Shown: positions 9,155 to 39,465, counted from the stretch's first letter. The stretch: 64,000 nucleotides of DNA from an uncultured Acidobacteriota bacterium (GCA_963807405.1 CAWEBU010000006.1:615733-679732); one strand, 5' to 3'. Made by a program: numbers and translations. The notes: generated by a model from the letters alone, not told the origin.

Positions 9155-9376
9155 ATGGCGCACGCAATCACCAAAAAGAACGACATCGAGACGCTGGTCG
9201 TCGTCGTACGGCGGGAGTTCGAGGAGATGCCCGGGCTGGTGCTGACCGCCGATCAGGCGCGGCGGCTATGGGCGATCGAGCCACGCATGTGCAGCGTCGT
9301 GCTGGACCGGCTGGTCGGAGCGGGTTACCTGCATCAGACCCCGTCCGGACACTACGTGAAGCCCTCGGCGGCCTGA
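9155..9376 (+). CDS. small hypothetical protein (73 aa), possible winged-helix fold
   Basis: ATG 9155 is preceded by GGAGGA. Same strand as the kinase and just downstream of it. No family recognised. Confidence 0.5.
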   Translation: MAHAITKKNDIETLVVVVRREFEEMPGLVLTADQARRLWAIEPRMCSVVLDRLVGAGYLHQTPSGHYVKPSAA

Positions 9377-9422
9377 AGGCCGCCTGGCGGCTGCGGCGAT
9401 CCGGCGCCGCCAGGGCGGAGCC

Positions 9423-9956
9423 TCAGGAGACCGGCCGCGCCATCAGCAGTCCCACCACCAGCGCCACGCCCGCGGCAATGGCCCAGCCGAGCAGGCTCAA
9501 GGCGATGGCGCGTCCCGTGCTCGTGAAATCGAAGGCCTGACGGATGGCGATGACCATCGCCAGGACCATCCAGACCGACGTCAGGGGCAGCACGAACCAG
9601 CGCGTGTCGCCGAAAATCTCGAAGGCGCGGAAGATGCCCGGCGCCGCCGCGAACCCGAGCGTGCGCAGCACCTCGCCGAGGTCGACCGAGGTGGTCGGTT
9701 CCGGCAGGATCTTCGCGCCGATCAGGTAGATCAGCGAGGCCCAGGCGGCCCACGCCACCACCGACCCCAGGGCGGCGACCGCGACCACCGTCGCCGCGCC
9801 ATCGCCGATTCCGCCGAAGCCGATGCCGGCACCCACCGCGGCCGCGAGCACCACGAGGAGGGCCTGGCCGGTGGCGTGCCGATCGGCCTCCACCTCTTCG
9901 AACACCTTCGGGTCGAGCGCCAGCGCGCCCAGCAGGCGGCGAAGGAACGTCGTCAT
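9423..9956 (-). CDS. Yip1-family membrane protein
   Basis: N-terminus LDPKVFEEVEADRHATGQALLVVLAAAVG followed by about 5 hydrophobic helices, as in YIP1-domain proteins. Confidence 0.7.
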   Translation of the reverse strand: MTTFLRRLLGALALDPKVFEEVEADRHATGQALLVVLAAAVGAGIGFGGIGDGAATVVAVAALGSVVAWAAWASLIYLIGAKILPEPTTSVDLGEVLRTLGFAAAPGIFRAFEIFGDTRWFVLPLTSVWMVLAMVIAIRQAFDFTSTGRAIALSLLGWAIAAGVALVVGLLMARPVS

Positions 9957-10070
9957 GGCAGTGCCTCCAGCCCGAGAGTACTGCAGACGCCGTGCCGCCC
10001 GCTGCGGCCAGGGCGAATCAGCGGTCCACCGGGCACGACACCTGTGCGTGCTGCCGGGGCCTCAGGCAGC

Positions 10071-11312
10071 TCACCAGACGAACAGCAAACCCGCCAGCAC
10101 GGCGCACACCGCGGCCAGCGCGGCGCCCGTCACGGCGCGGAACACGCCGCGGCCGATGACGACGGCCACGAAGAACTTCAGCACGGTATTGGCGAGAATG
10201 CCAATCGCGATGGCGCGCGCCGCGTCGTCGAGGCCGGTCCGCGGGCTGACCCCGCGGGCCATGGTGACCGTGAGGGCGTCGACGTCGGTCACACCGAGGG
10301 CGGCGGCCGAGGAGAACAGGCCGGCCTGACCGAACCACGCCTGCGCCGCATCCACCCCGTAGAGCACGATCTGGAAGAGCGCCGCCATCTGCAGCGCGGC
10401 GCCGATGCGCAGCGGGTTCTCGGTCGGGGCGCTGGGCTGGTGACCGGCCGGTGTGCGCCAGACGCCCCAGGTGGTCAGCAGGGCCAGCACCAGCAGCGGC
10501 GGCACCAGCCACGTCAGGAGGGCTCCGGCCAGGGGCCAGTTCAGGAGTGCCGTGGCCGCCAGCACGCGCGGGAAGAGTACGAGATTGGCCGCCAGCGCAC
10601 CTGCGACGAGCGCACGTCCGGGCGCCAGGCCGTCGCGGCTGGCCCGTGCGAACGTGACGGTGACGTTGGTCGACGAGACGAGACCGCCGAGCGCTCCCGC
10701 CACCCACAGCCCGTGGCGAGCGCCCACGGCCTTGCGCGCGATGTGTCCGGTGAAGCTCAGGCCGCTGAAGAACAGCACGAGTGCCCACAGTTCCTGCGGG
10801 CGGAATCCCGGCGCGGGCCCGAACGGACCGGCCGGCAGCAGCGGGAGCACGACCAGCGCCATGGCCGCGAAGCGGAGGCCGGCACGCAGATCGTCGCCGG
10901 CCAGGCGCGCCGCGAACGCATGGAGGCCCGACTTCTCGACGAGCAGCAGACCCGTGAAGGCCGCCAGGCCACTCGCGAGGCGCAACTGCCCGGAGCCGGC
11001 CAGGATGCCGGCGCCGAGGACCACGAACGCGGCCACCTCGGTCGTGCCGTCGATGTCGCTGCGGCTGGCCGAGACGTAGGCCGCCACGACCAGCGCCGCC
11101 GCGCCGCCAGCGAGCATGACCGCGAGGCCAGGGGCACTGGCCGCCAGGATGCCGGCGATCCCGCCAACGAGGCCGAGCAGGGTGAACGTCCGCAGGCCGG
11201 CAAAATGCGCCGCCGGGCCGTCGGCGTGACCGGACCATTGACGTTCGAGCCCGATGACCGCCCCGGCCAGCACTGCGATCGCGAGGCCCGGCGCGTGGTC
11301 GAGTGCGGTCAC
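10071..11312 (-). CDS. MgtC/SapB-family membrane protein with DUF4010-like extension
   Basis: MgtC-type N-terminus AVLAGAVIGLERQW, then a long polytopic hydrophobic region. Confidence 0.8.
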   Translation of the reverse strand: MTALDHAPGLAIAVLAGAVIGLERQWSGHADGPAAHFAGLRTFTLLGLVGGIAGILAASAPGLAVMLAGGAAALVVAAYVSASRSDIDGTTEVAAFVVLGAGILAGSGQLRLASGLAAFTGLLLVEKSGLHAFAARLAGDDLRAGLRFAAMALVVLPLLPAGPFGPAPGFRPQELWALVLFFSGLSFTGHIARKAVGARHGLWVAGALGGLVSSTNVTVTFARASRDGLAPGRALVAGALAANLVLFPRVLAATALLNWPLAGALLTWLVPPLLVLALLTTWGVWRTPAGHQPSAPTENPLRIGAALQMAALFQIVLYGVDAAQAWFGQAGLFSSAAALGVTDVDALTVTMARGVSPRTGLDDAARAIAIGILANTVLKFFVAVVIGRGVFRAVTGAALAAVCAVLAGLLFVW

Positions 11313-26191: not shown

Positions 26192-28423
26192 TCACGCGCC
26201 CTGTTCGTCGCGGGCGCTGGCGGCGTAGGACTCGATGAGCAGACGCTGCGCGTCGACCGACTCGCCGGTCGTGGAGGCCCGTTCGTAGCGCCCGCCGGGC
26301 GTGAGCACCCAGGTCCGCTCGGTGTCCTTCAGCAGCGGGCCGAGCACCACCTCGCGCAGATGGGTGCGCAGACCGGGATCGCCGATCGGGAACAGCACCT
26401 CGACGCGCCGATCGAGATTGCGCTCCATGAGGTCGGCGCTGCCGATGTAGAGCTCCGGATCACCGGCGTTCTCGAACCAGTAGAGACGCGAATGCTCGAG
26501 CAGGCGGCCGACGATCGAGCGGACATGGATGCGGTCGCTGACGCGCGGAATGCCCGGACGCAGGCAGCACACGCCGCGCACGATGAGATCGATGGCGACC
26601 CCGGCCTGCGAGGCGCGGTAGAGCAGCTTGATGGTGGCCAGATCGGCGACGGCGTTGTTCTTGATGATGATGCCGGCGGGACGCCCGGCCACGGCGTGCT
26701 CGATCTCGCGCTCGATGAGCGCGCGGATGCCCTGGCGCAGGCCGACCGGCGCCACCAGCAGCGCCCGGTAGCTGCGCTTGTTCGAGTAGCCGGTCAGCGT
26801 GTTGAAGACCTCCGTCACGTCGTCGACGATGGCGTCGTCGGCGGTGAACAGACCGATGTCGGTATAGACGCGCGAGGTCACGCGGTTGTAGTTGCCGGTG
26901 GCCAGATGGGCGTAGCGGCGGATGCCGCCGGCTTCCTTGCGGACGACCAGGCACAGCTTGCAGTGCACCTTGATGTTGACGAGACCGTAGACGACGTGGA
27001 TGCCGGCCGCCTCCAGGCGCGTCGCCCAGGCGATGTTGTTGCGTTCGTCGAAGCGCGCCTTGAGCTCGACCAGGACCGCCACCTGCTTGCCCTGCTCGGC
27101 GGCCTGGATGAGCAGGTCGACGAGGGGGGAGTCGGCGCCGATGCGGTAGAGCGTGATCTTGATGGCCACCACGTGCGGGTCCGCCACGGCCGCCCGCAGG
27201 AACGTCTCCACCGAGGTGAAGGAATCGAACGGGTGGTGGACCAGCACGTCCTCGTCGGCCACCTGCTCGAACACCTGGTCGGCGTCGTCCGGCCCCCACA
27301 GCGTCCGCGGGTGGAACATGGCGTCCTTGAGCGCCGGGCGGTGCAGGGCCGAGATCTGGTTCCAGTCGCCGAGACCCATGCGCGCGCTGGTGCGCACCAC
27401 GACGTCGTGGTCGACTTCGAAGTTCTCGATCAGGATGTCGAGCACCCGCCGCGGCATGTCGGCTTCCACCTGGAGCAGTGACGGCGCGCCGTAGCGCAGT
27501 TGCTTCAGGCCGCGGTCGACGCTCTCGAGCAGGTCGTCGGCCTCGTCTTCCTGGATCACCATGTCGGTGTCGCGGATGACGCGGAAGAGATGCGCGCCTT
27601 CGACCGTCGTGCCGGGGAACAGCGCCCGGATGTTGCGGCGGATGATGTCCTCGAGGAACACGAACGTGACGCCAGCGTGCGGCGAGAGGCCGGCCGGCAG
27701 TGTCACGAGACGCGGCAGCATGCCCGGGACCTTGACGCGGGCGAACTTGGTGCGGCCGCCGTGGCGGACCCGCACGGCCAGGTTCATGCTGAGGTTCGAG
27801 ATGAACGGGAAGGGATGTCCCGGATCGAACGCCAGCGGCGTCAGCACCGGAAACACCTGCGCTTCGAAGTACTCGGTCAGCCACTCGTCGAGCGCGGGCG
27901 AGTAGTCGCCGGGGTCGAGGAAGTGGATGCCCTCGCCGGCCAGCTGCGGACGCAACTGGCCCTGCCAGCAGCGGGTCTGCTCGGCCATCTGCTCGCCGGC
28001 GTGCATGCGGATGGCGTCCAGCTCGTCCTCGGTGCTCAGGCCGTCGATCGACGTGTCGTCGATCCCGGCGCGCAGCTTCTTGAGCAGGGTCGCCACCCGC
28101 ACCATGTAGAACTCGTCGAGATTGGTGGCGGAGATGGCGAGGAACTTCACCCGCTCGAGCAGCGGATGCGAGGCGTCGGTGGCCTGGGCGAGCACCCGGC
28201 GGTTGAACTCGAGCCAGCTCAGTTCTCTATTGATATAGAGCGCGGAGTTGCCGAGGTCGTCCGGGTCGAGCGTCGACCAGTCGGCCGGCAGCGGCTCGGC
28301 CGGCGCCGGCGCCGGCGCCGGCACTGCGCGGCGGCCGCGGCTGCGGCGCTGGGGAAACGGGAGCGGGCCGCCGGGGCGGGACGGCTCGGGAGAGGCGTCG
28401 GCCATGGGATTGCCGTCCAGCAT
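26192..28423 (-). CDS. ppk: polyphosphate kinase 1
   Basis: Conserved throughout, for example NRELSWLEFNRRVL, HCKLCLVVR and both PLD-like C-terminal domains. The start may be ATG 28405. Confidence 0.95.
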   Translation of the reverse strand: MLDGNPMADASPEPSRPGGPLPFPQRRSRGRRAVPAPAPAPAEPLPADWSTLDPDDLGNSALYINRELSWLEFNRRVLAQATDASHPLLERVKFLAISATNLDEFYMVRVATLLKKLRAGIDDTSIDGLSTEDELDAIRMHAGEQMAEQTRCWQGQLRPQLAGEGIHFLDPGDYSPALDEWLTEYFEAQVFPVLTPLAFDPGHPFPFISNLSMNLAVRVRHGGRTKFARVKVPGMLPRLVTLPAGLSPHAGVTFVFLEDIIRRNIRALFPGTTVEGAHLFRVIRDTDMVIQEDEADDLLESVDRGLKQLRYGAPSLLQVEADMPRRVLDILIENFEVDHDVVVRTSARMGLGDWNQISALHRPALKDAMFHPRTLWGPDDADQVFEQVADEDVLVHHPFDSFTSVETFLRAAVADPHVVAIKITLYRIGADSPLVDLLIQAAEQGKQVAVLVELKARFDERNNIAWATRLEAAGIHVVYGLVNIKVHCKLCLVVRKEAGGIRRYAHLATGNYNRVTSRVYTDIGLFTADDAIVDDVTEVFNTLTGYSNKRSYRALLVAPVGLRQGIRALIEREIEHAVAGRPAGIIIKNNAVADLATIKLLYRASQAGVAIDLIVRGVCCLRPGIPRVSDRIHVRSIVGRLLEHSRLYWFENAGDPELYIGSADLMERNLDRRVEVLFPIGDPGLRTHLREVVLGPLLKDTERTWVLTPGGRYERASTTGESVDAQRLLIESYAASARDEQGA

Positions 28424-28504
28424 ACCAAAGGCCGGCGTCTCGAACCACTTGTCGTCCGCGTAAACTATTGATATCAGGCCAGATATTGGCCCTTGCCGCG
28501 GTTG

Positions 28505-29257
28505 TTAGAAGTCGAACCAGAGCAGCACGGCGAAGACGATCACCGTGGCGGTCACGACTCGCTGAATCCACGCGTGTCCCTGCGTCACGGCCAGCCGCAC
28601 GCCGACCATCGCGCCGGCGATGTTGCCGGCGCCGAGCGCCAGGCCGTAGCCCCAGCGGACCACGCCGCCCGACGCGAAGATGGCCAGCGACAGCACCGTC
28701 AGCAGCAGCACCGAGAGCAGCTTGACGGCGTTGCCCTTGACGAGGTTCATGCCGGCGGCGCTCGTGGCGGCCAGCACGGCGAAGCCGACCCCCGCCTGAA
28801 TCAGGCCCCCGTAGACGCCGATGCCGAAGAACGCCAGCATCGTGCCGGGATGCCACGGCGAGCCGACTTCCTCCTCGCCCTGCGGCCGTGGCGAACGCGT
28901 CACCGTCCACAGCGTCATCGCCAGCATGGCAATCGACAGGAGCCGGCGGAAGCCGAGGTCCGACATCTGCAGCGCCCACCACGACCCGAGACCGGCACCG
29001 ATGAGGGCGGGCACGCTGACGGTCAGGCCCCAGCGCCAGTCCATCGCCCGTGACCGGTGGAACCCGACGACCCCGGTCACGTTCTGCGCCAGCACCCCGA
29101 CACGATTGGTGCCGTTGGCTTCGGCGGCCGGCAAGCCGAGGAAGAGCAGCGCCGGCAGCGTGATGAACGAGCCGCCGCCGGCCACCACGTTGAGGGCGCC
29201 GGCAACGAGACCAACGACGAAGAGACCTGCCAGGGGCAGGAGATCGGTGACCAGCAC
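28505..29257 (-). CDS. TauE/SafE-family anion exporter
   Basis: 250 aa with about 8 hydrophobic helices and glycine-rich motifs (VAGGGSFITLPAL; GIGVYGG). Confidence 0.8.
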   Translation of the reverse strand: MLVTDLLPLAGLFVVGLVAGALNVVAGGGSFITLPALLFLGLPAAEANGTNRVGVLAQNVTGVVGFHRSRAMDWRWGLTVSVPALIGAGLGSWWALQMSDLGFRRLLSIAMLAMTLWTVTRSPRPQGEEEVGSPWHPGTMLAFFGIGVYGGLIQAGVGFAVLAATSAAGMNLVKGNAVKLLSVLLLTVLSLAIFASGGVVRWGYGLALGAGNIAGAMVGVRLAVTQGHAWIQRVVTATVIVFAVLLWFDF

Positions 29258-29267
29258 GGGCCGCTAG

Positions 29268-29273
29268 TATAGT
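29268..29273 (+). promoter_or_regulatory. -10-like hexamer TATAGT 6 nt before ATG 29280 (possible leaderless transcript)
   Basis: There is no Shine-Dalgarno sequence between the hexamer and the ATG. Confidence 0.35.
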
Positions 29274-29279
29274 GGCCGC

Positions 29280-30173
29280 ATGCAGCAACGGATGCTCGGC
29301 CGTGCCGTGACGATCGCGATGACGCTCGTGGCCGGCGCGGCCACCGTGGCGGCGCAGACACCGCCGCCGGCGACCGACATCTTCCTCGCGCCGATCCGGC
29401 TGCTGGCGTCCGCGCCCACGATGGGGCCGGCGCGCGTCGCGTCGGAGAATGCCAGGGGCTATGACAACCAGCCGTTCTTCGGGCCGGACGGCCGCGCCAT
29501 GCTGTTCACGTCCAACCGCGACGGCAAGCAGTCCGACATCTACTTTCTCGAGCTGCAGACCCGCCAGATCCGCCAGTTCACCGACACGCCCGAGTCCGAG
29601 TACTCGCCGAACATCATGCCCGACGATGCCGGCATCTCCGTCATCCGCGTGGAAGCCGATGGCACGCAGCGCGTGTGGCGTTTCGACGAGGGCGGCGGCG
29701 CGCCCACGGTGGTCGCGCCCGCCATCAAGCCCGCCGGGTATCACCTCTGGATCGACAGCGGGCGGCTGGCCGTCTACGTGCTGGGGACACCCGCCACGCT
29801 GCAGATGGTGGACATCGCCAAGGGCTCGGCGCGGGTGATCGCCACCGATGTCGGGCGCTCGCTCCAGCGCCGACCCGGCGGCGGGCTCTCGTTCGTGCAG
29901 CGCGAGGGAGAGACCTGGCGGATCAAGGAATGGCTGCCCGCGACCGGCGAGATCCGCGACCTGGTGCCGGCGCTCTCCGGCAGCGCCGAGCGCGACACGG
30001 CCTGGGCGCCCGATGGCACGCTGTTCATGACCAGGGACGGCGACGTCCACTGGTGGCGGCCCGGCCAGGAGGGCTGGACGCTGCTGGCCGAGCCCGGAAT
30101 CGGGGCGCTGTCGCGTCTGGCGGTCTCGCCTGACGGGCGCTGGCTGGCCCTGGTGGCGGCGGAGAAGCCGTAG
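29280..30173 (+). CDS. exported PD40/TolB-like beta-propeller repeat protein
   Basis: Signal peptide present. NQPFFGPDGRAMLFTSNRDGKQSDIYF and LAVSPDGRWLA are PD40-type repeats. Confidence 0.7.
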   Translation: MQQRMLGRAVTIAMTLVAGAATVAAQTPPPATDIFLAPIRLLASAPTMGPARVASENARGYDNQPFFGPDGRAMLFTSNRDGKQSDIYFLELQTRQIRQFTDTPESEYSPNIMPDDAGISVIRVEADGTQRVWRFDEGGGAPTVVAPAIKPAGYHLWIDSGRLAVYVLGTPATLQMVDIAKGSARVIATDVGRSLQRRPGGGLSFVQREGETWRIKEWLPATGEIRDLVPALSGSAERDTAWAPDGTLFMTRDGDVHWWRPGQEGWTLLAEPGIGALSRLAVSPDGRWLALVAAEKP

Positions 30174-30293
30174 CCCCGAGGCGGGCCGAAGGGAGAAAGG
30201 GGTGGCGTGAGCCGGACCGAGACGTTAAACTCTTCGGGTATCGATCATATTCACTGTTGACATCGACGCCGTGAAGGCGCAGGAGGACACACT

Positions 30294-31469
30294 ATGTCGC
30301 TGACACGACGGCGACTCTTCGCCGGGATGTTCGAGCCCTCGCAGAACGAGTGGCTCTCGGCCCGAGGCCGTGAAGCCATGGTGGCTGGCCACTCCGAGGC
30401 CCAGATGGGCGCGCCCGGCGCGAAGTTGATTCGCATCTCGAGTAACGAAAACCCGCTCGGTCCCGGGAAGCACGTGGTGGACGCCATCACGGGCACCTTC
30501 GACGAGGCGGCCCGCTACCCGTTCAACGCCAGCAAGACCGAGGCCGCCCTCGTCGGCGGCCTGGCCAAGATGTACGGCGCCAAGAACGAGCAGATCGTGC
30601 TCGGGCCGGGGTCGGGCGAGATCCTGACGCACTCGGTGCGTGCCTTCACCTCGCCAACCCGTCCGCTCGTCACCGCCTGGCCGTCGTTCGAGAATCCGCG
30701 CGACACGGCCAAGAAGCTCGGCACGCCGGTGCGCGAGGTGGGCTTCGACGCGGGGCTCAAGATCGACCTGGCGAAGATGGTCGAGGCGTCCAAGGGCGCC
30801 GGGCTGGTCTTCTTCTGCAATCCCAACAATCCGACGGCGACGGTGCACGGCAAGACCGCCGTGGCCGACATGGTGAAGGCCATTCGCGCGGCCTCGCCCG
30901 ACACCGTCATCCTCATCGACGAGGCGTATCACGACTATGTGACCGACCCGTCGTACAGCTCGGCCATCGACCTGGCCCTGTCGACGCCCAACGTCTTCGT
31001 CGCCCGCACCTTCTCGAAGGCGTACGGCATGGCGGGGCTGCGCGCCGGCTACGCCATCGGCCACGCCGACGCGATCAAGGCGGTCCGCGCCTTCAAGATG
31101 CCGTACGGCCTCGGCACCCTGACGCTCGCCGGTGCCGTGACGGGGCTCGCCAACCAGGCGCACATCGACGCCGAACGCGCCCGCAACACCGAGGTGCGCG
31201 CCTTCACGACCAAGGCGTTCGCCGACATGGGCGTGACCGGCACCGATTCGCAGACCAACTTCCTGTTCATGGACATCAAGCGGCCCGCCGCGGGATTCCG
31301 TGACGCCTGCCGCGAGGCTGGCGTGCTGGTGGGCCGCGACTTCCCGCCGTTCGAGAAGAAGTACTGCCGCGTGTCGATTGGCACGATGGACGAGATGCAG
31401 CGTGCGGTGGCCGTGTTCAAGACCGTGCTCGGAGGCGCCACCAGCACCTCCAGACAGGCGGGGCGCTAA
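30294..31469 (+). CDS. HisC-like class-II PLP aminotransferase with RR-containing N-terminus
   Basis: SSNENPLGP, FCNPNNPT and the PLP-lysine motif RTFSKAYGMAGLRAGY. The N-terminus MSLTRRRLFAGMF has a twin-arginine motif but a weak hydrophobic region. Confidence 0.85.
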   Translation: MSLTRRRLFAGMFEPSQNEWLSARGREAMVAGHSEAQMGAPGAKLIRISSNENPLGPGKHVVDAITGTFDEAARYPFNASKTEAALVGGLAKMYGAKNEQIVLGPGSGEILTHSVRAFTSPTRPLVTAWPSFENPRDTAKKLGTPVREVGFDAGLKIDLAKMVEASKGAGLVFFCNPNNPTATVHGKTAVADMVKAIRAASPDTVILIDEAYHDYVTDPSYSSAIDLALSTPNVFVARTFSKAYGMAGLRAGYAIGHADAIKAVRAFKMPYGLGTLTLAGAVTGLANQAHIDAERARNTEVRAFTTKAFADMGVTGTDSQTNFLFMDIKRPAAGFRDACREAGVLVGRDFPPFEKKYCRVSIGTMDEMQRAVAVFKTVLGGATSTSRQAGR

Positions 31470-31498
31470 CCGTGTCGACGACCAAGGAGGTTTCAACC

Positions 31499-32659
31499 AT
31501 GTCGCTCTCGCGACGTTCATTCGTGCACACGGTCGGCGCCGGTGCCGCCGGACTCTGGATCGCCGGCCGCGGCCGTGAAGGCTCGCTCTTCGGCGGGCAG
31601 ACGCTCTCCGCGCAGGGGATGTCCCCGTCCATCATCCTGTCGAGCAACGAGAACCCGCTCGGCTGTCACCGCGACGTGCTGGCCGGTGTCTCGGACAGCA
31701 TGAGCTCGGCCGGGCGCTACGCGTTCTCGGTCGCCGATGAGGTTCGCGGCATCGTCGCCAAGAAGCACAACGTCAAGCCCGAGAACGTGCTCCTCGGCGC
31801 CGGTTCGACGCAGATCCTGCGCACCTCCACGCACGTCTTCACCTCGAAGACGGCGGGGCTCGTGGCCGCGATTCCGGCCTACGAAGAGTGTGCCGACTAC
31901 GCGCGGCTGATGGGCCACCCGATCACCGGCGTGAAGCTCAACTCCGAGCTGAAGATGGACCTCGACGCGCTGCAGCAGGCGTCGAAGGGCGCCGGGCTGG
32001 TGTTCTACTGCAACCCCAACAACCCGGTGGCCACCGCCATCAGCGGCTCGGATACGAAGATGTATCTGACCACGCTGATGAAGCAGTCGCCGTCGACGAC
32101 GGTGCTGGTCGACGAGGCCTACTTCGAGTACGGCACGATGCCCGGCTACGAGACGATGATCCCGCTGGCCATCGAGAACCCGCGCGTCATCGTGGCGCGC
32201 ACCTTCTCGAAGTGCTTCGGCATGGCCGGGCTGCGCATCGGCTACGCCATCGCCCACAAGGACACCATCGCCAAGATGGCGGCCTGGGACGGCATCGACC
32301 AGATCAGCGTCATGGCGCTCTCCGGCGCCAAGGCGGCCCTGGCCGTGCCCGACAGCTGGGTCAAGGCCGAGCAGAAGCGCAACGCCGAGGCGCGCTCCTT
32401 CACCATGAAGTGGTTCTCGGATCACGGCTACACGCCGACCGACTCGCAGACCAACTTCATGTTCGTGGACATCAAGCGGCCGTCGCGCGGCTTCCGCGAG
32501 GACTGCCTCAAGGAAGGCGGCGTGCTCGTGGCCCGCGACTTCCCGCCCTACGAGAAGACGCACGTGCGGATCTCGGTGGGCACGATGGACGAGATGCAGA
32601 AGGCCGTGCAGGTCTTCGACCGCGTGCTGGCGAAGCCGGCGCGCGCCGCGGCCGCATAA
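31499..32659 (+). CDS. HisC-like class-II PLP aminotransferase with Tat signal peptide (paralog of the previous gene)
   Basis: ATG 31499 follows AAGGAGG. Tat signal MSLSRRSFVHTVGAGAAGLWIAG. Also SSNENPLGC, YCNPNNPV and RTFSKCFGMAGLRIGY. Confidence 0.85.
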   Translation: MSLSRRSFVHTVGAGAAGLWIAGRGREGSLFGGQTLSAQGMSPSIILSSNENPLGCHRDVLAGVSDSMSSAGRYAFSVADEVRGIVAKKHNVKPENVLLGAGSTQILRTSTHVFTSKTAGLVAAIPAYEECADYARLMGHPITGVKLNSELKMDLDALQQASKGAGLVFYCNPNNPVATAISGSDTKMYLTTLMKQSPSTTVLVDEAYFEYGTMPGYETMIPLAIENPRVIVARTFSKCFGMAGLRIGYAIAHKDTIAKMAAWDGIDQISVMALSGAKAALAVPDSWVKAEQKRNAEARSFTMKWFSDHGYTPTDSQTNFMFVDIKRPSRGFREDCLKEGGVLVARDFPPYEKTHVRISVGTMDEMQKAVQVFDRVLAKPARAAAA

Positions 32660-32777
32660 CCACCGATTGACAAATCGGCCCCACCGGCCGATAGTCCCGA
32701 CTGTCAACACCGGGCTTCTTTTCAACGCGCGAGCGAGGGAAGGAAGCCCGGTTGTCTTTTCCGGGGAGGATTCGGGC

Positions 32778-33608
32778 ATGGGCATGGGCAACATGGACAT
32801 TGACCGGCGCGCGTTCATCGCGAGCCTGGGCGGGTTGGCTGTCGTCGAGGCCATGGACCCGGAGTCGAAGGCGGAGGCGCTCGAGCACTACATGGTCGAG
32901 AAGCTCGACGCCGGTGCGACGAGCCCGCTGACGCTGGCCGAGGAGCAGGTCGTGCCGGCGCCGCCCGAGGCCACCGTGCGGCGCGGCGCGGGCAGCCTGT
33001 TCACCCCGCGCGGCCCCGCCGACGACCGCCGGATGCCGGTGCTGGCGCCGATGTCGAACAACGCCACACTGCTCGAGTTCTTCGAGAAGCGCTTCGCGCC
33101 CGCCAACCACGTGCTGCAGAGCGCGACCCGCGCCCTCAAGACCGGGATGAGCGAAGAGATCGTGATGGCCTGCCTGCTGCACGATGTCGTGCAGAACCTG
33201 GTCAAGGTCGATCACGGCTGGTGGGGCGCGCAGCTGGTCGAACCCTACGTGTCGGAGAAGGTCACCTGGGCCATCAAGTATCACCAGGCCCTGCGCTTCT
33301 ACCCTGACTCGGCACACGGCTACGAATACCCCGAGCTCTACACGCGCATCTACGGCAAGGACTACGAGCCGCAGCCGCACATCAAGGCGGCCTATGAGTT
33401 CGCGCGCAACCATAAGTGGTACTTCGAGGCCCGGATGGTGACGGTGAACGACCTCTACGCGTTCGACCCGAACGCGAAGGTGTCGATCGAGCCGTTCATC
33501 GACATCATCGGACGCCAGTTCAAGCAGCCGAAGGAAGGGCTGGGGAACGACAACAGCGGCACCGCGCACATGTGGCGCACGATGATGTTCCCGGACAACC
33601 CGCTGTAG
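32778..33608 (+). CDS. HD-domain protein, MIOX-like, with Tat signal peptide
   Basis: ATG 32778 follows GGGGAGGA. Tat signal MDIDRRAFIASLGGLAVVEA. H...HD motif (NHVLQSA...CLLHDVVQ). IKYHQALRFYP and VNDLYAFD recall myo-inositol-oxygenase-type HD proteins (weak). Confidence 0.65.
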   Translation: MGMGNMDIDRRAFIASLGGLAVVEAMDPESKAEALEHYMVEKLDAGATSPLTLAEEQVVPAPPEATVRRGAGSLFTPRGPADDRRMPVLAPMSNNATLLEFFEKRFAPANHVLQSATRALKTGMSEEIVMACLLHDVVQNLVKVDHGWWGAQLVEPYVSEKVTWAIKYHQALRFYPDSAHGYEYPELYTRIYGKDYEPQPHIKAAYEFARNHKWYFEARMVTVNDLYAFDPNAKVSIEPFIDIIGRQFKQPKEGLGNDNSGTAHMWRTMMFPDNPL

Positions 33609-33664
33609 GTGGCGCGGACCGGCAACGGCCGGGCGGCCCTGGGCGGGAACGCGATACGATATCT

Positions 33665-33692
33665 ACGGGCGGGGGCCGCGGCCTCCGCCCGT
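33665..33692 (+). terminator. GC-rich hairpin downstream of the HD-protein gene
   Basis: ACGGGCGG-(ggccgcggcc)-CCGCCCGT. There is no clear U-tract. Confidence 0.3.
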
Positions 33693-33706
33693 TGCCGTAT
33701 CCACCC

Positions 33707-35032
33707 ATGAACGTTCCTCGCATCGTCCCGTTCTTCGCCGTCGCCGCGGCGCTCTGGCTCGGCGCCACCGGCATGGCGCTCCAGCGCTCGGACGCCTTCC
33801 CGGATTCGCGGCACCATCCCGCCATCAAGTACGGATCGACGGCCCCCTCCGACGTCGTCGCCAGGCTGAACGCGCGGCTCGAGCGCGGCGAGCTGAGCGC
33901 TCGCCTACGAGGCCGGCGGCCGCGGCTACCTGAAGGCCGTGCTGGCGGCGCTCGGCATCGACGAGAGCTCGCAGACCCTCGTCTACTCGGGCACCAGCCT
34001 GCAGGCGTCCTACATCTCGGCGGCCAATCCGCGCGCCATCTACTTCAACGACAACGTGTCGGTGGCGTGGATCCGCGGCGCGCCGCTCATCGAGCTGGCG
34101 GCGCAGGACGCGCGGCTCGGCACCGTCTTCTACCAGCTGTCGCAGACCGAGAGCGCCACCCCGCGGCCGTCGCGGATGGAGACGTGCCTGTCCTGCCACC
34201 TGTCGTGGGACACGCGGGCCGTGCCCGGGCGTGTTCGTGATGACGACGTTCCCGCGCAAGTCCGATCGCGACTACGCCAACGGCGGCGTCAGCGATCACC
34301 GGGAACCCGTCTCGACGCCGCTACGGCGGCTGGTACGTGACCGGCGCCAGGGTGCCGCCACGCCACATGGGCAACCAGCCGCTGATCGGGCCGCACGCGG
34401 CCGCCCCGGAGGCCACGCCGCCGCCGGCGGCGCTGACGACCCTGAAGGGGACCGGCCTGGTCCGCGACATCGACGACTACCTCACGCCGACGAGCGACAT
34501 CGCCGCCCTGGTCGTGCTCGAACATCAGCTCCACGCCATGAACCTCATGACCCGCACGGCCTGGGAGCATCGCCTCGTGGCCGGCGCCGACGCCGAGGCG
34601 GAGGTGGCGCCGGGACGCGAGCCGGCGCTGACGCCGCGCGTCGTCGAGGCGGTCGAGGAACTCGTCGACTACCTGGTGTTCGTGGATGAAGTGCCGCTCG
34701 GCACCGTGCGCGGCAATTCCGGCTTCACCGAGTGGTTCGCCGCGCAGGGGCCGCGCGACGGTGCCGGGCGGTCGCTGCGGGAGCTGACGCTCGACGGCCG
34801 CATGATGCGCTATCCGCTCAGCTACACGATCTACTCCGTGGCCTTCGAGGGCATGCCGCCGGCGGTGCGCCAGGCGACCTATCGCCGGCTGTGGCAGGTG
34901 CTCTCGGCGGCGCGCCCCGGCCCCAGATACGCGCACCTGACGGCAGCGGATCGCAAGGCGATGCTCGAGATCCTGCGCGCGACCAAGAGCGACCTGCCCG
35001 ACTACTTCTCGTCCACGCTGGCCCCGCGCTGA
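33707..35032 (+). pseudogene. exported CXXCH-motif protein (conserved hypothetical), three frameshifts
   Basis: Reading frames 33707, 33939, 34231 and 34337 in turn gives one coherent protein: ...LERGELS/AYEAGGRGYLKAVLAALGIDESSQ...CLSCHLSWDTRAVPG/VFVMTTFPRKSDRDYANGGVSDHREPVST/RYGGWYVTGARVPPRHMGNQ... Shifts lie near 33897-33905, 34224-34231 and 34315-34322. Confidence 0.6.
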
Positions 35033-35134
35033 GGCGGCCGGCGTCCCGCGACGCCGCCGTACAGACGACGGGCCGCAGCAGCGCTGTGGCTGCCGCGGCC
35101 CGCGTGATCGGACGGTCCAGACGCCGCGTGGCGG

Positions 35135-36296
35135 CTAGGCGATCATGACGCGCCGCACGTGCTGTGCGTTGTGCTCGAGGAACGACTTCTTGTTCTCGAG
35201 TTCCTTCTCGGTGGGCTGCACCAGGCCGGTGGCGTCGGTGACGCGCGAGACGATGGTGTGCTCGCCGGGCGTGGCGCCCTTCCAGTCGTAGTGGAACAGC
35301 TTCCACGAGTACTTCGTGTTCTGCTTGTCCATGGTCGCCGGCTGCCACGGGCCGTCGTCGACCTTGACCTCGACCGACTTGAGCGCCGTGCCGTCGTTGA
35401 GGACCACGCCGACCACCTTGTGGGTGTCGCCTTCCTTGGTGATGCGGGCCACGTAGGACTTGAGCTGCAGGTGGGTGACGGCGCTCTCCATCCACTTCAT
35501 CTCGCCGTTGATCATCTCGCCGCGGACGGTGCGGTACCAGCGCGCCTGGTACTTGCCGAGATACGGGTCCCGCTGCGCGACGATGTCGGACAGCCACTTG
35601 ACGTTGGCCACGCCGTACCAGCCGGGCACGATCAGGCGCACCGGGAAGCCCTGGTGACGGGTGAGCGGCTCGTCGTTGTAGGCGTAGGCCACCAGCGGCT
35701 CGGCCGACATGGCCTTGTCGCGCTGCAGGCTGCGGCCGAACTGCTGATCGAGGCTGTACTTCTGGGTGCGCCACTCGACCTCTTCGGTGCCGTGGTCGGC
35801 GCCGAGGAACACGATCTCGCGCGCGTCGGCTTTCACGCCCACGCTCTTCAGCAGCGTCGCCAGCGGCACGCCCGTCCACTTGCCGTTGCTGGCCAGGCCC
35901 TGCACCGGCGCGCGGTTGCCCGAGCACTCGAAGCCGAACATCACATCGCCCTTGGGCATCTTCTTGAGGTCGGCCACCGTGAACGCCTGCGGCGTCGCCG
36001 ACCAGGCCAGAGACGTTCAGCTTGAAGGTGGCTTCGTCGAGCACCGGGTGGCCGTAGTGCTGCGTGGTGAAGAACTGATCCCGGGGCGTCGCGAACGACG
36101 TCAGCGTGCGCGAGTCGAACAGCCGGCGGTCGGGCGCCGGGGTGGCGTTGAAGGTCTCCGGGAAATCGAGGAACGGCACGACCGCGGCGCCCTGGGCGAG
36201 CGCCGGCAGCACCCACTCGGGCACGCCAAGAACGCCGAGACTGGCTGCGGCCAAGCCGCCGCGAAGAACTTCACGCCTTGTGTGCTGCTCGCTCAT
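35135..36296 (-). pseudogene. sulfite-oxidase-family molybdopterin oxidoreductase (Tat signal), one frameshift near 35995-36003
   Basis: N-terminus MSEQHTRREVLRGGLAAASLG...FKLNVSGLV, then a frame change to ATPQAFTVADLKKMPKGDVMFGFECSGN...VPGWYGVANVKW. Length is 1162 nt, which is 3n+1. Confidence 0.75.
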
Positions 36297-36407
36297 GGTT
36301 CATCCCTTTCGCAGGCCGCATCTGCCGCCCGAATCGCCCATCAGGGTAGCTCGGCCGCTCGCGGCGCCGCAAGGCGAATCCAGCGCCGGTACAACCTGAT
36401 ACAAGGC

Positions 36408-37151
36408 CTACAGGTTGCTCGCCCGCACCTTCAGCTCCGCCCGGCGCGGGTCCGACAGCTGGCGGGGCCGCGCCGCGCCGCCGGCGGTGGTGGCGAGGCG
36501 CACCAGGGTTTCGAGCGTGCAGTAGATGGCGCCAATCCAGACCGGCGGGTTGGTGGTCGTGAGCCCGAACCACGGCTCCACCGTGTAGTAGCGCCAGCCG
36601 CCGAGCGCGGTGCCCTAGGCTTCGATGGCGAAGGCGAACAGGAAGAGCGTGGCGCACAGCCGCGGGTTGGCGCTGAAGCGGCAGGTAGGCCGCGAAGGCG
36701 GCGAACCACACGCAGCCCGAACGTGTCGTAGCCGCGCCAGGCGCCGTAGGCCACGACGGCCCCGAACAGGATGCGCCACCGCCCGCGGCAGCCAGGCGGG
36801 GGCGGCGCGGCTCATGCGGGCGGCGGCCGCGAAGACCAGGGCGTGGCCGGCGGGGATGAAGAGCGGGAGGTTGCCGAGCCGGTAGTCGTAGAGCCCCCAC
36901 ACGTCCTTCAGGAAGACCTCGCCGGCCGTGGCCAGCACCACGCAGGCGGCCAGCTCCATCCGGTGGCGGGGCGCCGAGTGGGCGGCGATCCACAGCAGCG
37001 CCGCCCAGCTCCAGGCCGAGACGACCGGCTGGGCCCAGGGCAGGGCAGTGGCGTCGAGCGCGATGCCGAGCGCGAGGGTGGCGACGACGAGGACCACGAC
37101 CCGGTGCGCGTGCGCCGCGACGGCCGGCGCCTGGTTCAGGGCAACCGGCAT
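36408..37151 (-). pseudogene. polytopic membrane protein, heavily disrupted (about 3 frameshifts at 36675-36790 plus in-frame TAG at 36615-36617)
   Basis: The frame-X product turns Arg-rich (RAVAHPVRGRRGLRRLARLRH). The alternative frames read LFGAVVAYGAWRGYDTFGL and CVWFAAFAAYL. After the TAG the same frame continues as GTALGGWRYYTVEPWFGLTTTNPPVWIGAIYCTLETL. Confidence 0.5.
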
Positions 37152-37179
37152 GCAGGCAGAATAATACGGAGGACCCGCC

Positions 37180-37596
37180 ATGGCCACCTTCACCGACTAC
37201 CTCTGGTTCACGACCGCCAACCGTCAGGAGTTCGTGCGCATCACCGACCAGGTGCGCGCCATCGTCGAGAAGAGCGGCATCCGCGACGGCATGGTGCTCG
37301 TGTCGGCCATGCACATCACGGCCGGCGTCTACGTGAACGACTGGGAGGACGGCTTGATCCACGACTTCCAGGTCTGGCTCGAGAAGCTGGCGCCGGCCGG
37401 GCTGCCGTATCGCCATCACCAGACCGGGGAGGACAACGCCGACGCCCACCTGAAGCGGACGCTGATGGGGCATCAGGTGATCGTGCCGATCACCAACGGC
37501 GACCTCGACCTCGGGCCGTGGGAGCAGGTGTTCTACGCCGAGTTCGACGGCCAGCGGAAGAAGCGGGTGGTCGTCAAGGTGATGGGCGAGCGGTAG
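37180..37596 (+). CDS. YjbQ/UPF0047 family protein (secondary thiamine-phosphate synthase-like)
   Basis: [36 protein letters not shown] and [14 protein letters not shown] are typical of the YjbQ family. Confidence 0.9.
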
Positions 37597-37694
37597 CGCG
37601 CGGGCGGCGCCTGGTGCCGATCCGTCGTGTCTGGCCCGGGGCACTCCCGACCGAGGGCCCGCCCATGTTACGATTCGTGGTTCTCACCACTCGC

Positions 37695-37769
37695 GTCCCC
37701 GTCGTCCAGAGGTCAGGACGTGGCCCTTTCAAGGCTAAAACACGGGTTCGAATCCCGTCGGGGACGCCA
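37695..37769 (+). tRNA. tRNA-Glu (anticodon TTC)
   Basis: 75-nt cloverleaf: acceptor GTCCCCG/CGGGGAC, D-stem GTCC/GGAC, anticodon stem TGGCC/GGCTA with loop CTTTCAA, T-arm ACGGG-TTCGAAT-CCCGT, encoded CCA. Close to E. coli tRNA-Glu. Confidence 0.9.
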
Positions 37770-37780
37770 ACTCCCTCGCA

Positions 37781-38125
37781 AGCTCGGTCGTTGGCCGTCC
37801 CGCGACGGTCTTCAGGCACGCCGCGTCAGGCAGGCCTGACGCGAGCGGGCACGAATCCCGCGGTCGGCCCACACGCCCTGTTAGAGCTCGGTCGTTGGCC
37901 GTCCCGCGACGGTCTTCAGGCACGCCGCGTCAGGCAGGCCTGACGCGAGCGGGCACGAATCCCGCGGTCGGCCCACACGCCCTGTCAGAGCTCGGTCGTT
38001 GGCCGTCCCGCGACGGTCTTCAGGCATCGCCGCGTCAGGCAGGCCTGACGCGAGCGGGCACGAATCCCGCGGTCGCACACGCCTTGTCATATCTCGGTCG
38101 TTGGCCGTCCCTCGACGGTCGACGG
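37781..38125. repeat. about 104-bp tandem repeat, 3 full copies plus a diverged partial copy, each with three GC-rich hairpins
   Basis: Unit starts at 37781, 37885, 37989 and 38091. Copies 1 and 2 differ at one base. Hairpins: GGCCGTC-ccgc-GACGGTC, CGCGTCAGG-cagg-CCTGACGCG and GCGGG-cacgaat-CCCGC. Confidence 0.9.
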
Positions 38126-38235
38126 GCACGACCGGATTGCCGTCTCTGCCGTGAGGGACGGGCTCCCGAATCACCGCTTGTCCTCATAGTCCGGGGTTGC
38201 CGCATGGTGGTCCCGGCCTGAAAAGGGGACGAGTG

Positions 38236-39465
38236 ATGCTGCCCACGACTAGCCCAACCGAGATTCTGGACCAACTGGATCCCTGGGGATTCGGCGCCAG
38301 CGGCGGCGACGACCAGTCGGCTGTCATCGCGCGCTACGAGCCGATCGACGAACCCGTGGATGACGACGAGCCGTTCCTCGACGCCCTGCCGGAACTGGCG
38401 GCCGTGGCGGCCGGCGTCCCGGCGGCCAGTGCCTTCCCCATGCCCCTCCCAGCGGCCGACAGCACGCAGGGACTAGGGTTGCCGTTCCCACGTCACATGG
38501 CGGCCGTGCTGGCCCTCTTCGGCGCCGTCATCGTGGCGCAGGGCTTCTACATCGGCTTCTCGCTGACCGGCGAGGCCTCGGCCCGGCCGGATGTGGGCGA
38601 AGTGGTGGTCTCGTCCCACCCCACGGGCGCGCAGGTGCGCGTGGACGGCGACATGCACGGCACCACGCCCCTCGTCCTGCCGCTCGTCGCTGGCCGCCAC
38701 CGCGTGGAGCTGGTCGGCGCGTCAGGCGACCCCACCTTCCTCGAGGCTGACGTGGTGGCCGGCGAGCGCTGGACCCGGCACGTCGTGCTGGCCCCGGCCG
38801 CCGTGGAGACGCCCCAGGCCGGCGCGCTCCGCGTTGACACCGGCCGGACACCGGCGCAGGTGCTCATCGACGGCGAGCCGGCGGGCGCCGCGCCCGTCAC
38901 GCGCGCCAACCTTGCTGCTGGTGCCCACGCCGTGCGCGTCGAGTTCCGTAACGGCACGTCGATCGAACGCACGGTCACGGTGCCGGCCAGCGAGACCCTG
39001 TCGCTCGTGCTGGACGCGCCGGCCACGCGGCCGGTCGCGCCGGCCGCACCCGCCTCGGGCTGGCTGCGCGTGGACGCGCCGTTCGAGGTCCAGGTCTTCC
39101 GCGCCGGTGACCTGGTGGGCTCGAGCCTCAGCGAACGCATCATGCTGCCGGCGGGCGGCCACGACCTCGTACTGGTCAGTGCCGCGCTCGGCTACCGTGC
39201 CACCGTCAAGGCCAACGTCGTGACCGGCAAGCTCGTGCCGCTCGTCATCGACACCCCGCGCGTGCCGGTGGCCGTCAACGCGCAGCCGTGGGCCGAGTTG
39301 ATCGTCGATGGCCGCGTGCACGGCGACACGCCGCTCGCCAACGTGATGCTGCCGATTGGCGTCCACGACATCGTGCTGCGCCATCCCGAACTCGGGGAGC
39401 GCCGGCAGACCGTGACCGTGCGTGCCAGCGGCGCCAACCGTGTTTCGGCCGACCTGCGCCGATAG
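38236..39465 (+). CDS. PEGA-domain membrane-anchored protein
   Basis: Start at ATG 38236. Acidic cytoplasmic N-terminus, one TM helix (AAVLALFGAVIVAQGFYIGF), then about 4 PEGA repeats (for example SSHPTGAQVRVDGDMHGTTPLVL and VNAQPWAELIVDGRVHGDTPL). Confidence 0.8.
   Translation: MLPTTSPTEILDQLDPWGFGASGGDDQSAVIARYEPIDEPVDDDEPFLDALPELAAVAAGVPAASAFPMPLPAADSTQGLGLPFPRHMAAVLALFGAVIVAQGFYIGFSLTGEASARPDVGEVVVSSHPTGAQVRVDGDMHGTTPLVLPLVAGRHRVELVGASGDPTFLEADVVAGERWTRHVVLAPAAVETPQAGALRVDTGRTPAQVLIDGEPAGAAPVTRANLAAGAHAVRVEFRNGTSIERTVTVPASETLSLVLDAPATRPVAPAAPASGWLRVDAPFEVQVFRAGDLVGSSLSERIMLPAGGHDLVLVSAALGYRATVKANVVTGKLVPLVIDTPRVPVAVNAQPWAELIVDGRVHGDTPLANVMLPIGVHDIVLRHPELGERRQTVTVRASGANRVSADLRR

Follow-up and report, generated by a model that had tools for sequence, protein, structure and literature searches.

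A tandem pair of HisC-like aminotransferases and a PhnZ/TmpB-like HD-domain protein with twin-arginine N-termini in an uncultured acidobacterium

Organisation of the locus

The window analysed here is a stretch of 64,000 nt from an uncultured Acidobacteriota bacterium (GCA_963807405.1, CAWEBU010000006.1:615733-679732). It contains three consecutive genes on the plus strand. The first two encode HisC-like pyridoxal phosphate (PLP) aminotransferases, referred to as AT1 and AT2, and the third encodes an HD-domain protein, referred to as HD. Sequence comparison identifies AT1 and AT2 as an ancient tandem pair in the order a (AT1) then b (AT2), and assigns HD to a large unannotated family with a conserved twin-arginine (RR) leader and a complete set of dimetal ligands. 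An earlier note, written from this DNA sequence alone, had taken the three genes to suggest a periplasmic catabolic module exported by twin-arginine translocation (Tat).

The three open reading frames (ORFs) lie where the earlier note had placed them, each preceded by a good Shine-Dalgarno sequence (Table 1), and the motifs it had quoted (SSNENPLG, NPNNP, FSK..G.AGLR.GY, IKYHQALRFYP and VNDLYAFD) are all found in the translations. The MDIDRR it had given for the HD gene (position 32793) is internal to the MGMGNMDIDRR start. The G+C content of the window is ~70%, and the nearest public relatives are metagenome-assembled genomes (MAGs) of Vicinamibacterales/Acidobacteriota.

Table 1. Features of the locus, numbered from the first letter of the window.
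Feature	Position	Strand	Remarks
PD40 (TolB-like) beta-propeller protein	29280..30173	+	Pfam PD40, E = 2.8e-11
AT1, a-type HisC/PtaA-like PLP aminotransferase	30294..31469	+	391 aa; AGGAGG upstream of ATG
RRR codons of AT1, residues 5-7	30306..30314	+	RR kept in 15/15 a-type sequences
AT2, b-type aminotransferase	31499..32659	+	386 aa; AAGGAGG upstream; Schiff-base K238
Putative Tat signal of AT2, MSLSRRSFVHTVGAGAAGLWIAG	31499..31567	+	small residue before conserved RGRE
Promoter-like TTGACA-17-GATAGT	32667..32695	+	overlaps small hairpin ATCGGCC..GGCCGAT; may be coincidental
Terminator-like GC-rich hairpin with T-rich tract	32709..32762	+	stem of 12 bp plus, ACCGGG...CCCGGT; z = -3.9
HD-domain protein, PhnZ/TmpB-like fold	32778..33608	+	276 aa; begins MGMGNMDIDRR
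Putative Tat leader of HD, MGMGNMDIDRRAFIASLGGLAVVEA	32778..32852	+	RR-x-F-I, 12-residue uncharged core, possible V-E-A cleavage site

AT1 and AT2 fall on the PtaA/PRK09105 side of the HisC family

Both aminotransferases match Pfam PF00155 (Aminotran_1_2, cut-off 19.7 bits), AT1 with 141.1 bits (E = 6.7e-41) and AT2 with 128.9 bits (E = 3.5e-37). They are 46% identical to each other and match the HisC-family models, which bears out their description as HisC-like paralogues. The top-scoring NCBIfam model is PRK09105 (NF006580; AT1 258.4 and AT2 268.8 bits, cut-off 444). PtaA (NF051461) gives 233.4 and 224.5 bits at a cut-off of 500, and HisC (TIGR01141) ranks below both with 227.1 and 206.9 bits at a cut-off of 276.55. 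The closest relative in the Protein Data Bank (PDB) is 3ly1. The catalytic residues are complete in AT1 (N176-P180, D209 and the Schiff-base lysine K242), with D205 and K238 as the counterparts in AT2, and none of the 30 a- and b-type sequences described below deviates at K242/K238, D209/D205 or NPNNP. As judged from their sequences, AT1 and AT2 are PLP aminotransferases with intact catalytic sites, and within the HisC family they fall on the side of PtaA/PRK09105.

PtaA of Pseudomonas fluorescens (Ringel et al. 2017) is a HisC-like PLP transaminase that is exported in folded form via Tat, and its homologues also occur in non-pyoverdine species, where they may serve other periplasmic pathways (PMC6206403). 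Hence a folded HisC-like PLP enzyme exported by Tat, as proposed by the earlier note, has a precedent, and the aminotransferases belong to the already known PtaA-like Tat transaminases. They share with PtaA and PRK09105 the HisC-like fold-type I architecture and a twin-arginine N-terminus, and these are the top named models for both proteins. They differ in scoring well under the cut-offs of these models, in standing outside a pyoverdine context and in being arranged as a conserved a/b tandem, one of whose two signals has lost its hydrophobic core.

The matches to TIGR01141 and the annotation of the nearest PDB entries as HisC would also suit a second explanation, namely that AT1 and AT2 are redundant histidinol-phosphate aminotransferase isozymes for histidine biosynthesis. 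However, both proteins stay below the HisC cut-off and score higher with PRK09105 and PtaA, both carry RR leaders, and no his genes were found around the AT pair. Moreover the genome has a separate hisC between hisD and hisB/hisH (L005, G000:C6:3.393 Mb). We consider this explanation highly improbable, and the genes should not be annotated hisC. The earlier note had allowed that its reading would fall if the genome held no other hisC and these genes complemented histidine auxotrophy; given the separate hisC in the hisD-C-B-H cluster this objection does not apply. Deducing a phosphorylated substrate from the substrate-phosphate arginines of HisC was considered and dropped, the positions being judged too variable among HisC proteins.

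In the hisD-C-B-H cluster (G000:C6:3391584-3395480) hisC reads through into hisB as one ORF of 729 aa, and the C-terminus of HisC matches in a different frame (3393961-3394104). This junction contains either a frameshift or an assembly indel. Two more HisC/PRK09105-like aminotransferases are found in the genome, L001 (G000:C6:3.532 Mb) and L003 (G000:C6:0.234 Mb, adjoining a LysR regulator), both with clear RR leaders (FSRRRFFGGVAAAVGALG and VSRRRFVGGLAATLGYIG). The genome thus contains four genes for HisC-like aminotransferases with RR leaders.

An ancient tandem pair with divergent leaders

AT2-like and HD genes were searched for in 121 genomes sampled evenly from the window's order. An AT2-like gene (E <= 1e-90) is present in 33 of them, in most cases with a second AT gene immediately adjoining. 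For tree and alignment 15 a/b loci (30 AT sequences) were retrieved. The b proteins form a single clade with a support of 99/99 that spans about ten families of the order, which argues for a duplication older than the split of these families. Across a and b, 78 positions are identical, including NPNNP, DEAY, the Schiff-base lysine, the arginine binding the PLP phosphate and the RR, and the sole position fixed differently is E109 in a versus Q105 in b. Hence both are probably active enzymes with near-identical active-site residues. Of the in-frame TAG codons flagged in this search, the one examined (G012, L096) is not a case of recoding, since its match range extends to the ORF end and takes in the regular stop codon of the gene.

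The N-termini of the two proteins differ in design. In AT2 the motif SRRSFV is found, with 17 uncharged residues after the RR, and every b sequence read shows the RR, 12-21 uncharged residues, a small residue and a conserved RGRE, as predicted for a canonical Tat signal. AT1 starts with MSLTRRRLF, the RRR being followed by only 6 uncharged residues before a glutamate, such that no hydrophobic core is formed. The a proteins always retain S-R-R and the xARG(R/L/H)E junction, with charges interrupting the core in most lineages (RRRLFAGMFEPSQNEW in the window; RRRLFQRLATPDYSAQAEW, RRALFRTLAGKKKPVP and RRELFSRLRSGGLLDE in others). An intact a-type core is found in three of the ~14 lineages read (RRGFFRSVGVTGAGTLSGAAIAA in L083 and L084; also L090). 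The loss of the a-type core looks derived. An a/b arrangement with one decayed signal appears to be undescribed so far.

Evidence for export by Tat

The Tat models TIGR01409 and PF10518 are insensitive on isolated leaders, where a molybdoenzyme control fails as well, and their scores are used comparatively only. The AT2 leader obtains 15.7 bits with TIGR01409 (cut-off 16.7) and 14.5 bits with PF10518. With 13.7 bits the sulfite-oxidase-family molybdoenzyme encoded in the window, a member of a family that is normally exported by Tat, scores below AT2 in TIGR01409. The leader of the L001 aminotransferase passes this model at 20.2 bits. The earlier judgement of the AT2 leader as convincing and of the AT1 leader as weak agrees with these values and with the 17 versus 6 uncharged residues.

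The leader of HD consists of RR-A-F-I followed by 12 uncharged residues ending in a glutamate. It gives no match to the Tat hidden Markov models (HMMs), and a distant homologue of HD (P0124) passes TIGR01409 at 17.1 bits. The pattern x-I-D-R-R-A-F-I-A-S-L-G-G is conserved in ~65 homologues, some of which come from MAGs with Alphaproteobacteria or Nitrospira labels. The core has 16-17 residues ending in A-V-A or A-L-A in clade B of the HD tree, and 12 residues followed by Glu/Asp in clade A, to which the protein of the window belongs. Thus of the three twin-arginine N-termini claimed initially the RR near all three starts is confirmed; AT1 has no hydrophobic region (h-region) and the HD leader is not recognised by the Tat models.

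The frequency of Tat-like starts among the likely coding frames of the genome is at most 6.4% under a permissive rule of our own. AT2 passes this rule and the HD protein of the window misses it by one residue. We regard the conservation of the leaders in ~65 HD homologues and 30 AT sequences as a stronger argument than this chance rate. The genome encodes TatC (223 bits) and two TatA/B proteins (78.8 and 61.3 bits). On these grounds AT2 is likely exported, and export of HD is probable as well, with a somewhat lower degree of confidence.

Alternatively the RR N-termini might be non-functional as export signals, the proteins staying cytoplasmic and the segments having another structural or regulatory role. 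No leader in the window attains the cut-off of a curated Tat model, AT1 clearly has no h-region, and HD with its 12 uncharged residues fails even the permissive rule. In addition, RR pairs are common in an Arg-rich genome of ~70% G+C, and the leaders are conserved unusually well for signal peptides. However, the AT2 score is no lower than that of the molybdoenzyme control of the window, and TIGR01409 is passed at the homologous position by the L001 aminotransferase and by P0124. The b-type h-region is retained in every lineage read, the nearest named families (PRK09105/PtaA) include a proven Tat substrate (PMC6206403), and the neighbours are typically exported proteins such as PD40 and NHL propellers and pyrroloquinoline quinone (PQQ) dehydrogenases. 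Hence non-export is seemingly quite unlikely.

HD belongs to a large family with a PhnZ/TmpB-like fold

Homologues of HD are numerous. Among 8,000 scored candidates 6,785 match at E <= 1e-3, all of them annotated as 'hypothetical' or 'predicted HD phosphohydrolase', and 1,251 clusters at 50% identity match at the same threshold. The Pfam HD model (PF01966) gives 20.2 bits for HD at a gathering cut-off of 22, and some close homologues do have a PF01966 match. The predicted metal ligands are H111, H135, D136, H146, H169 and D225. None of them varies among 29 full-length members with identities down to 56%, so that the full H, HD, H, H, D set for a diiron site expected by the earlier note is present. 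Further invariant residues of the family are H212, H264, R105, K143, R173, R219, K249 and K252.

Sequence-level matches in NCBIfam and PDB are restricted to PhnZ, TmpB and PhnZ1, all of them weak (TIGR03276 for PhnZ 25.5 bits, cut-off 214.6; NF049941 for TmpB 24.2 bits, cut-off 300). In phmmer alignments H111, H135/D136, H146 and H169 correspond to ligands of TmpB, and H111 and H135/D136 to H34 and H58/D59 of PhnZ. The structure of HD was modelled using AlphaFold2 (predicted local distance difference test 77.4, predicted template modelling score 0.69). A Foldseek search with this model returned TmpB (6npa) or PhnZ (4mlm, 4mln, 4n6w, 4n71) as all of its top ten matches, with E-values from 4e-5 to 3e-3 and template modelling (TM) scores of ~0.57 on target length. 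No other PDB entry matched below E = 0.01. The E-values of the next HD proteins are more than 100-fold higher (E >= 0.67), and the HD hydrolases RelH, PgpH, HD-GYP and lmo0812 are found at E 0.7 to 3 with TM scores of at most 0.43.

Only four HD-domain oxygenases have been characterised, namely MIOX, PhnZ, TmpB and SmaX (PMC12186529); export has been reported for none of the four. PhnZ and TmpB are the sole convincing fold matches of HD, with the H, HD, H and H ligands aligned and a later invariant Asp. HD differs from them in several respects. Identity is 16-20%. The YxxE loop, which in PhnZ/TmpB binds the substrate's amino group and gates Fe2, is replaced: F101 and K104 occupy the aligned positions of Y24 and E27 of PhnZ, the adjoining R105 is invariant, and the family consensus at this position is FFEKRF. 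HD has ~95 extra residues at the N-terminus (leader, a conserved KAEALE helix and a low-confidence linker) and a C-terminal extension with a conserved FKQPKEGLG..AHMWR block. The known enzymes are cytoplasmic, whereas HD has a predicted Tat leader, and no exported HD-domain oxygenase was found in literature searches. Neither phosphonate nor inositol genes are found nearby. An Fe/2-oxoglutarate (2OG) hydroxylase (PhnY*/TmpA) is absent from the conserved neighbours in 24 clade-B or stand-alone and 20 clade-A loci, as assessed by ORF clustering and not by a targeted HMM search. MIOX (2HUO) belongs to the same superfamily and has the same six-ligand diiron motif, but is matched by Foldseek only at E = 1.2 with a TM score of ~0.3, and there is no match to Pfam PF05153 at E <= 0.01. 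Of the MIOX/PhnZ resemblance seen initially, the PhnZ/TmpB part is supported by the fold and the MIOX part is not.

Dinuclear HD phosphohydrolases and phosphodiesterases have the H..HD..H..H..D motif too, and it binds dimetal sites in the phosphodiesterases as well as in enzymes of the YqeK type (PMC8177086). Hence the ligand set is necessary but not sufficient for oxygenase chemistry. This raises the possibility that HD is an exported dinuclear phosphohydrolase or phosphodiesterase that scavenges phosphorus, following a logic like that of the Tat-exported phosphatase PhoD. Apart from the common motif, the absence of the YxxE loop speaks for such an activity, as does the invariant R105 six residues before the first His, where HD phosphatases have a conserved Arg (PMC8177086). 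The invariant basic residues K143, R173, R219, K249 and K252 suggest an anionic, possibly phosphorylated substrate, and a polyphosphate kinase gene (ppk) is located nearby. However, the fold matches below E = 0.01 are exclusively the oxygenases TmpB and PhnZ, the sequence-level matches are to PhnZ, TmpB and PhnZ1 models only, and the adjacency of ppk is lost in many loci. We thus regard hydrolase activity as doubtful. Oxygenase chemistry would be the best-supported assignment given the modelled fold, and HD should not be annotated as a phosphohydrolase by default.

The HD family is multi-copy in family f12 of the order sample, with 2 to 4 matches per genome of 2.0-4.6 Mb, some of them fragments. 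Multi-copy genomes are G011, G046, G059, G072, G084 and G096; G011 (f11, 5.4 Mb) has five matches, and a tandem pair is found at G072:C18:19121-20786. The presence of multiple copies suggests a diversified substrate range.

The hairpin between AT2 and HD belongs to the AT pair

The spacer between AT2 and HD is occupied by a terminator-like hairpin (Table 1). In 15 aligned loci ACCGGG and CCCGGTT are invariant, and 12 pairs are conserved, three of them in the inner stem with compensatory changes. An equivalent hairpin directly follows AT-b where another gene comes next, including loci without HD. Since the hairpin is found after AT-b whatever gene follows, it belongs to the AT pair and is probably its intrinsic terminator. 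The Shine-Dalgarno sequence of HD comes immediately after the T-tract, so that expression of HD would probably depend on read-through and be lower. We regard the promoter-like match at 32667-32695 as doubtful, since a small conserved hairpin lies across it. For the spacer hairpin a riboswitch was considered and dropped, as an Rfam scan of window positions 28000-38500 at E <= 1 gave no match in the spacer; a terminator was adopted instead when the same hairpin was seen after AT-b where HD is missing.

Conservation of the three-gene order

In 35 loci the order AT1-AT2-HD is kept, even where the ppk, TauE, PD40, CXXCH and sulfite-oxidase-family genes are lost or replaced. In the HD tree all AT-linked HD genes fall into clade A, where ATs adjoin in 35 of the 40 rows. 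In contrast, a custom HMM search found no ATs within 7 kb of clade-B HD genes (0/25). Over the order sample HD is present in 26/121 genomes and the AT pair in 33/121, the overlap being partial. The AT pair occurs in genomes that have no HD at all (families f5 and f19; genomes G063 and G077). In G099, a genome of the same genus, PD40-AT1-AT2 is directly followed by the CXXCH gene with no HD after AT2, and in f12 (L096) permease and Amidohydro_2 genes come directly after AT-b with no HD in between. In three clade-A genomes the AT pair and HD are both present and unlinked. Hence the synteny expected by the earlier note holds in the 35 clade-A loci, but the pair and HD also occur apart elsewhere.

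A permease of the APC/LAT type follows the HD gene in 16 loci, with Amidohydro_2 and pirin genes after the permease in L030. Clade-B HD genes have a gene for a PQQ-dependent dehydrogenase as neighbour in 7/24 loci and no general partner. This neighbour is a PQQ dehydrogenase with a cytochrome c domain (periplasmic quinohaemoprotein; L061:1059-2900 and six other loci), and in L061 it is encoded on the opposite strand, upstream of HD.

HisC-family enzymes often act on phosphate-bearing amines, and PhnZ-type enzymes cleave hydroxy-phosphonates. On this background the three genes might constitute one periplasmic catabolic pathway for a single amino- or phosphono-compound, with its product being imported by the downstream APC permease in related genera. 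The adjacency in 35/40 clade-A loci despite changed flanks fits such a pathway, as do the permease after HD and the additional genes in L030. None of the three enzymes needs ATP or NAD(P)H, which suits a periplasmic location, and the HD start is only ~25 nt past the hairpin, hence read-through transcription is likely. However, the pathway is hard to reconcile with AT pairs in genomes devoid of HD, with the genes that directly follow AT2 in G099 and AT-b in f12, with 25/25 clade-B HD genes lacking nearby ATs and with the three genomes in which HD and the pair are unlinked. Moreover a terminator-like hairpin separates AT2 from HD, and the syntenic loci stem from close relatives and are hence not independent observations. 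A single pathway is therefore not probable, although it deserves to be kept in mind. The conserved unit is the AT pair, with HD as its lineage-specific neighbour. Based on the pair having its own terminator-like hairpin and on the independent occurrence of pair and HD, the trio is best described as a lineage-specific juxtaposition. The single module proposed by the earlier note is accordingly not obligate: the pair exists without HD, clade B exists without ATs, and the hairpin closes the pair.

Neighbouring genes

The PD40 gene is a conserved neighbour upstream of AT1 in most close loci (window's family). Further upstream, a gene for a TauE/SafE-family membrane protein (28505-29257, minus strand) and ppk (26192-28423, minus strand) are conserved in the window's family and dropped in more distant loci. 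In f3, f4, f5 and f19 (L085, L086, L088, L093, L095) one or two exported NHL-repeat beta-propellers flank the AT pair and occupy the place of the PD40 propeller. Downstream of HD, CXXCH and sulfite-oxidase-family genes (33707-37151) are frameshifted in the window and intact in relatives such as L016 (7930-9252, CXXCH, 440 aa; 9329-10540, sulfite-oxidase family, 403 aa). The CXXCH protein matched no Pfam or NCBIfam family.

Three public records (CAYUAX010000031.1, CAZJBN010000016.1 and CAZLBU010000124.1; L021, L027 and L029) are titled 'uncultured Bifidobacteriaceae bacterium'. They contain a Vicinamibacterales-type ppk-TauE-AT1-AT2-HD locus with a protein identity of 81-84%, and the Bifidobacteriaceae labels are probably wrong.

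Interpretation

Taken together we favour, with moderate confidence, a reading in which an ancient AT pair with a Tat-exported AT2 stands next to HD as an exported diiron oxygenase, the trio being a lineage-specific juxtaposition. AT2 would be exported folded, with PLP bound, through Tat. As AT1 keeps the RR and the mature junction and has lost the hydrophobic core, it would either leave the cytoplasm together with AT2, hitchhiking in a heterodimer, or be retained there. Co-export by hitchhiking is known for the small and large subunits of hydrogenase (Rodrigue et al. 1999, cited in PMC13673990) and would explain an a/b pair with a working signal on one partner only. In this case the constraint on the a signal may have been relaxed because b supplies export. 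Known hitchhikers, however, have no signal at all, whereas AT1 retains a strictly conserved RR. Neither hitchhiking nor a cytoplasmic AT1 accounts for this invariant RR.

HD would cleave a C-C or C-P bond beside a hydroxyl group in a substrate that is probably anionic. HD-domain oxygenases do not need an external reducing system (PMC8177086). As the transaminases in turn would need neither ATP nor NAD(P)H, a periplasmic location appears chemically plausible. The AT pair recurrently adjoins genes for exported beta-propellers (PD40 in the window, NHL in other loci), the APC permease and a cytoplasmic Amidohydro_2 protein. Together with the PQQ quinohaemoprotein dehydrogenases often found beside clade-B HD genes, this fits a scheme in which small organic compounds are processed outside the cytoplasm and then taken up. 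The three proteins are possibly cooperating within their lineage and do not represent an obligate three-gene pathway. A chemically coherent but purely speculative route would be transamination of an aminophosphonate, after which the hydrated oxo-phosphonate is cleaved in the manner of PhnZ.

Several observations weigh against the favoured reading. All three leaders score under the cut-offs of curated Tat models, and the short h-region of HD comprises 12 residues with Glu at its end. With regard to chemistry, HD shares its metal motif with dinuclear HD hydrolases (PMC8177086), has FxxK(R) in place of the YxxE loop, stands without an Fe/2OG hydroxylase partner nearby and scores far under the family cut-offs (TIGR03276 25.5/214.6; PF01966 20.2/22). 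The AT1-AT2 heterodimer is pure inference. Finally, the trio is kept in 35/40 clade-A loci despite differing flanks, and hence there may be a functional link in the clade-A lineage.

A more far-reaching reading, which we put forward only tentatively and consider unlikely, is that the HD family is a new class of Tat-exported mixed-valent diiron oxygenase with a new substrate, that the periplasmic aminotransferase is a heterodimer in which AT1 hitchhikes on the Tat signal of AT2, and that in the window's lineage both act jointly in the breakdown of an amino compound outside the cell, with neither ATP nor NAD(P)H being required. If so, this class would be widespread in soil Acidobacteria and present also in some MAGs with Alphaproteobacteria or Nitrospira labels.

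Through the conserved a/b pair the PtaA precedent reaches well past the pseudomonads, and one may ask how amino acceptors are supplied to periplasmic transaminases and whether a PLP enzyme may be co-exported as a heterodimer. The HD family, with thousands of members in soil metagenomes, is a candidate for a new oxidative cleavage of C-C or C-P bonds outside the cytoplasm because it combines a complete set of predicted diiron ligands with a changed substrate loop and a putative export leader.

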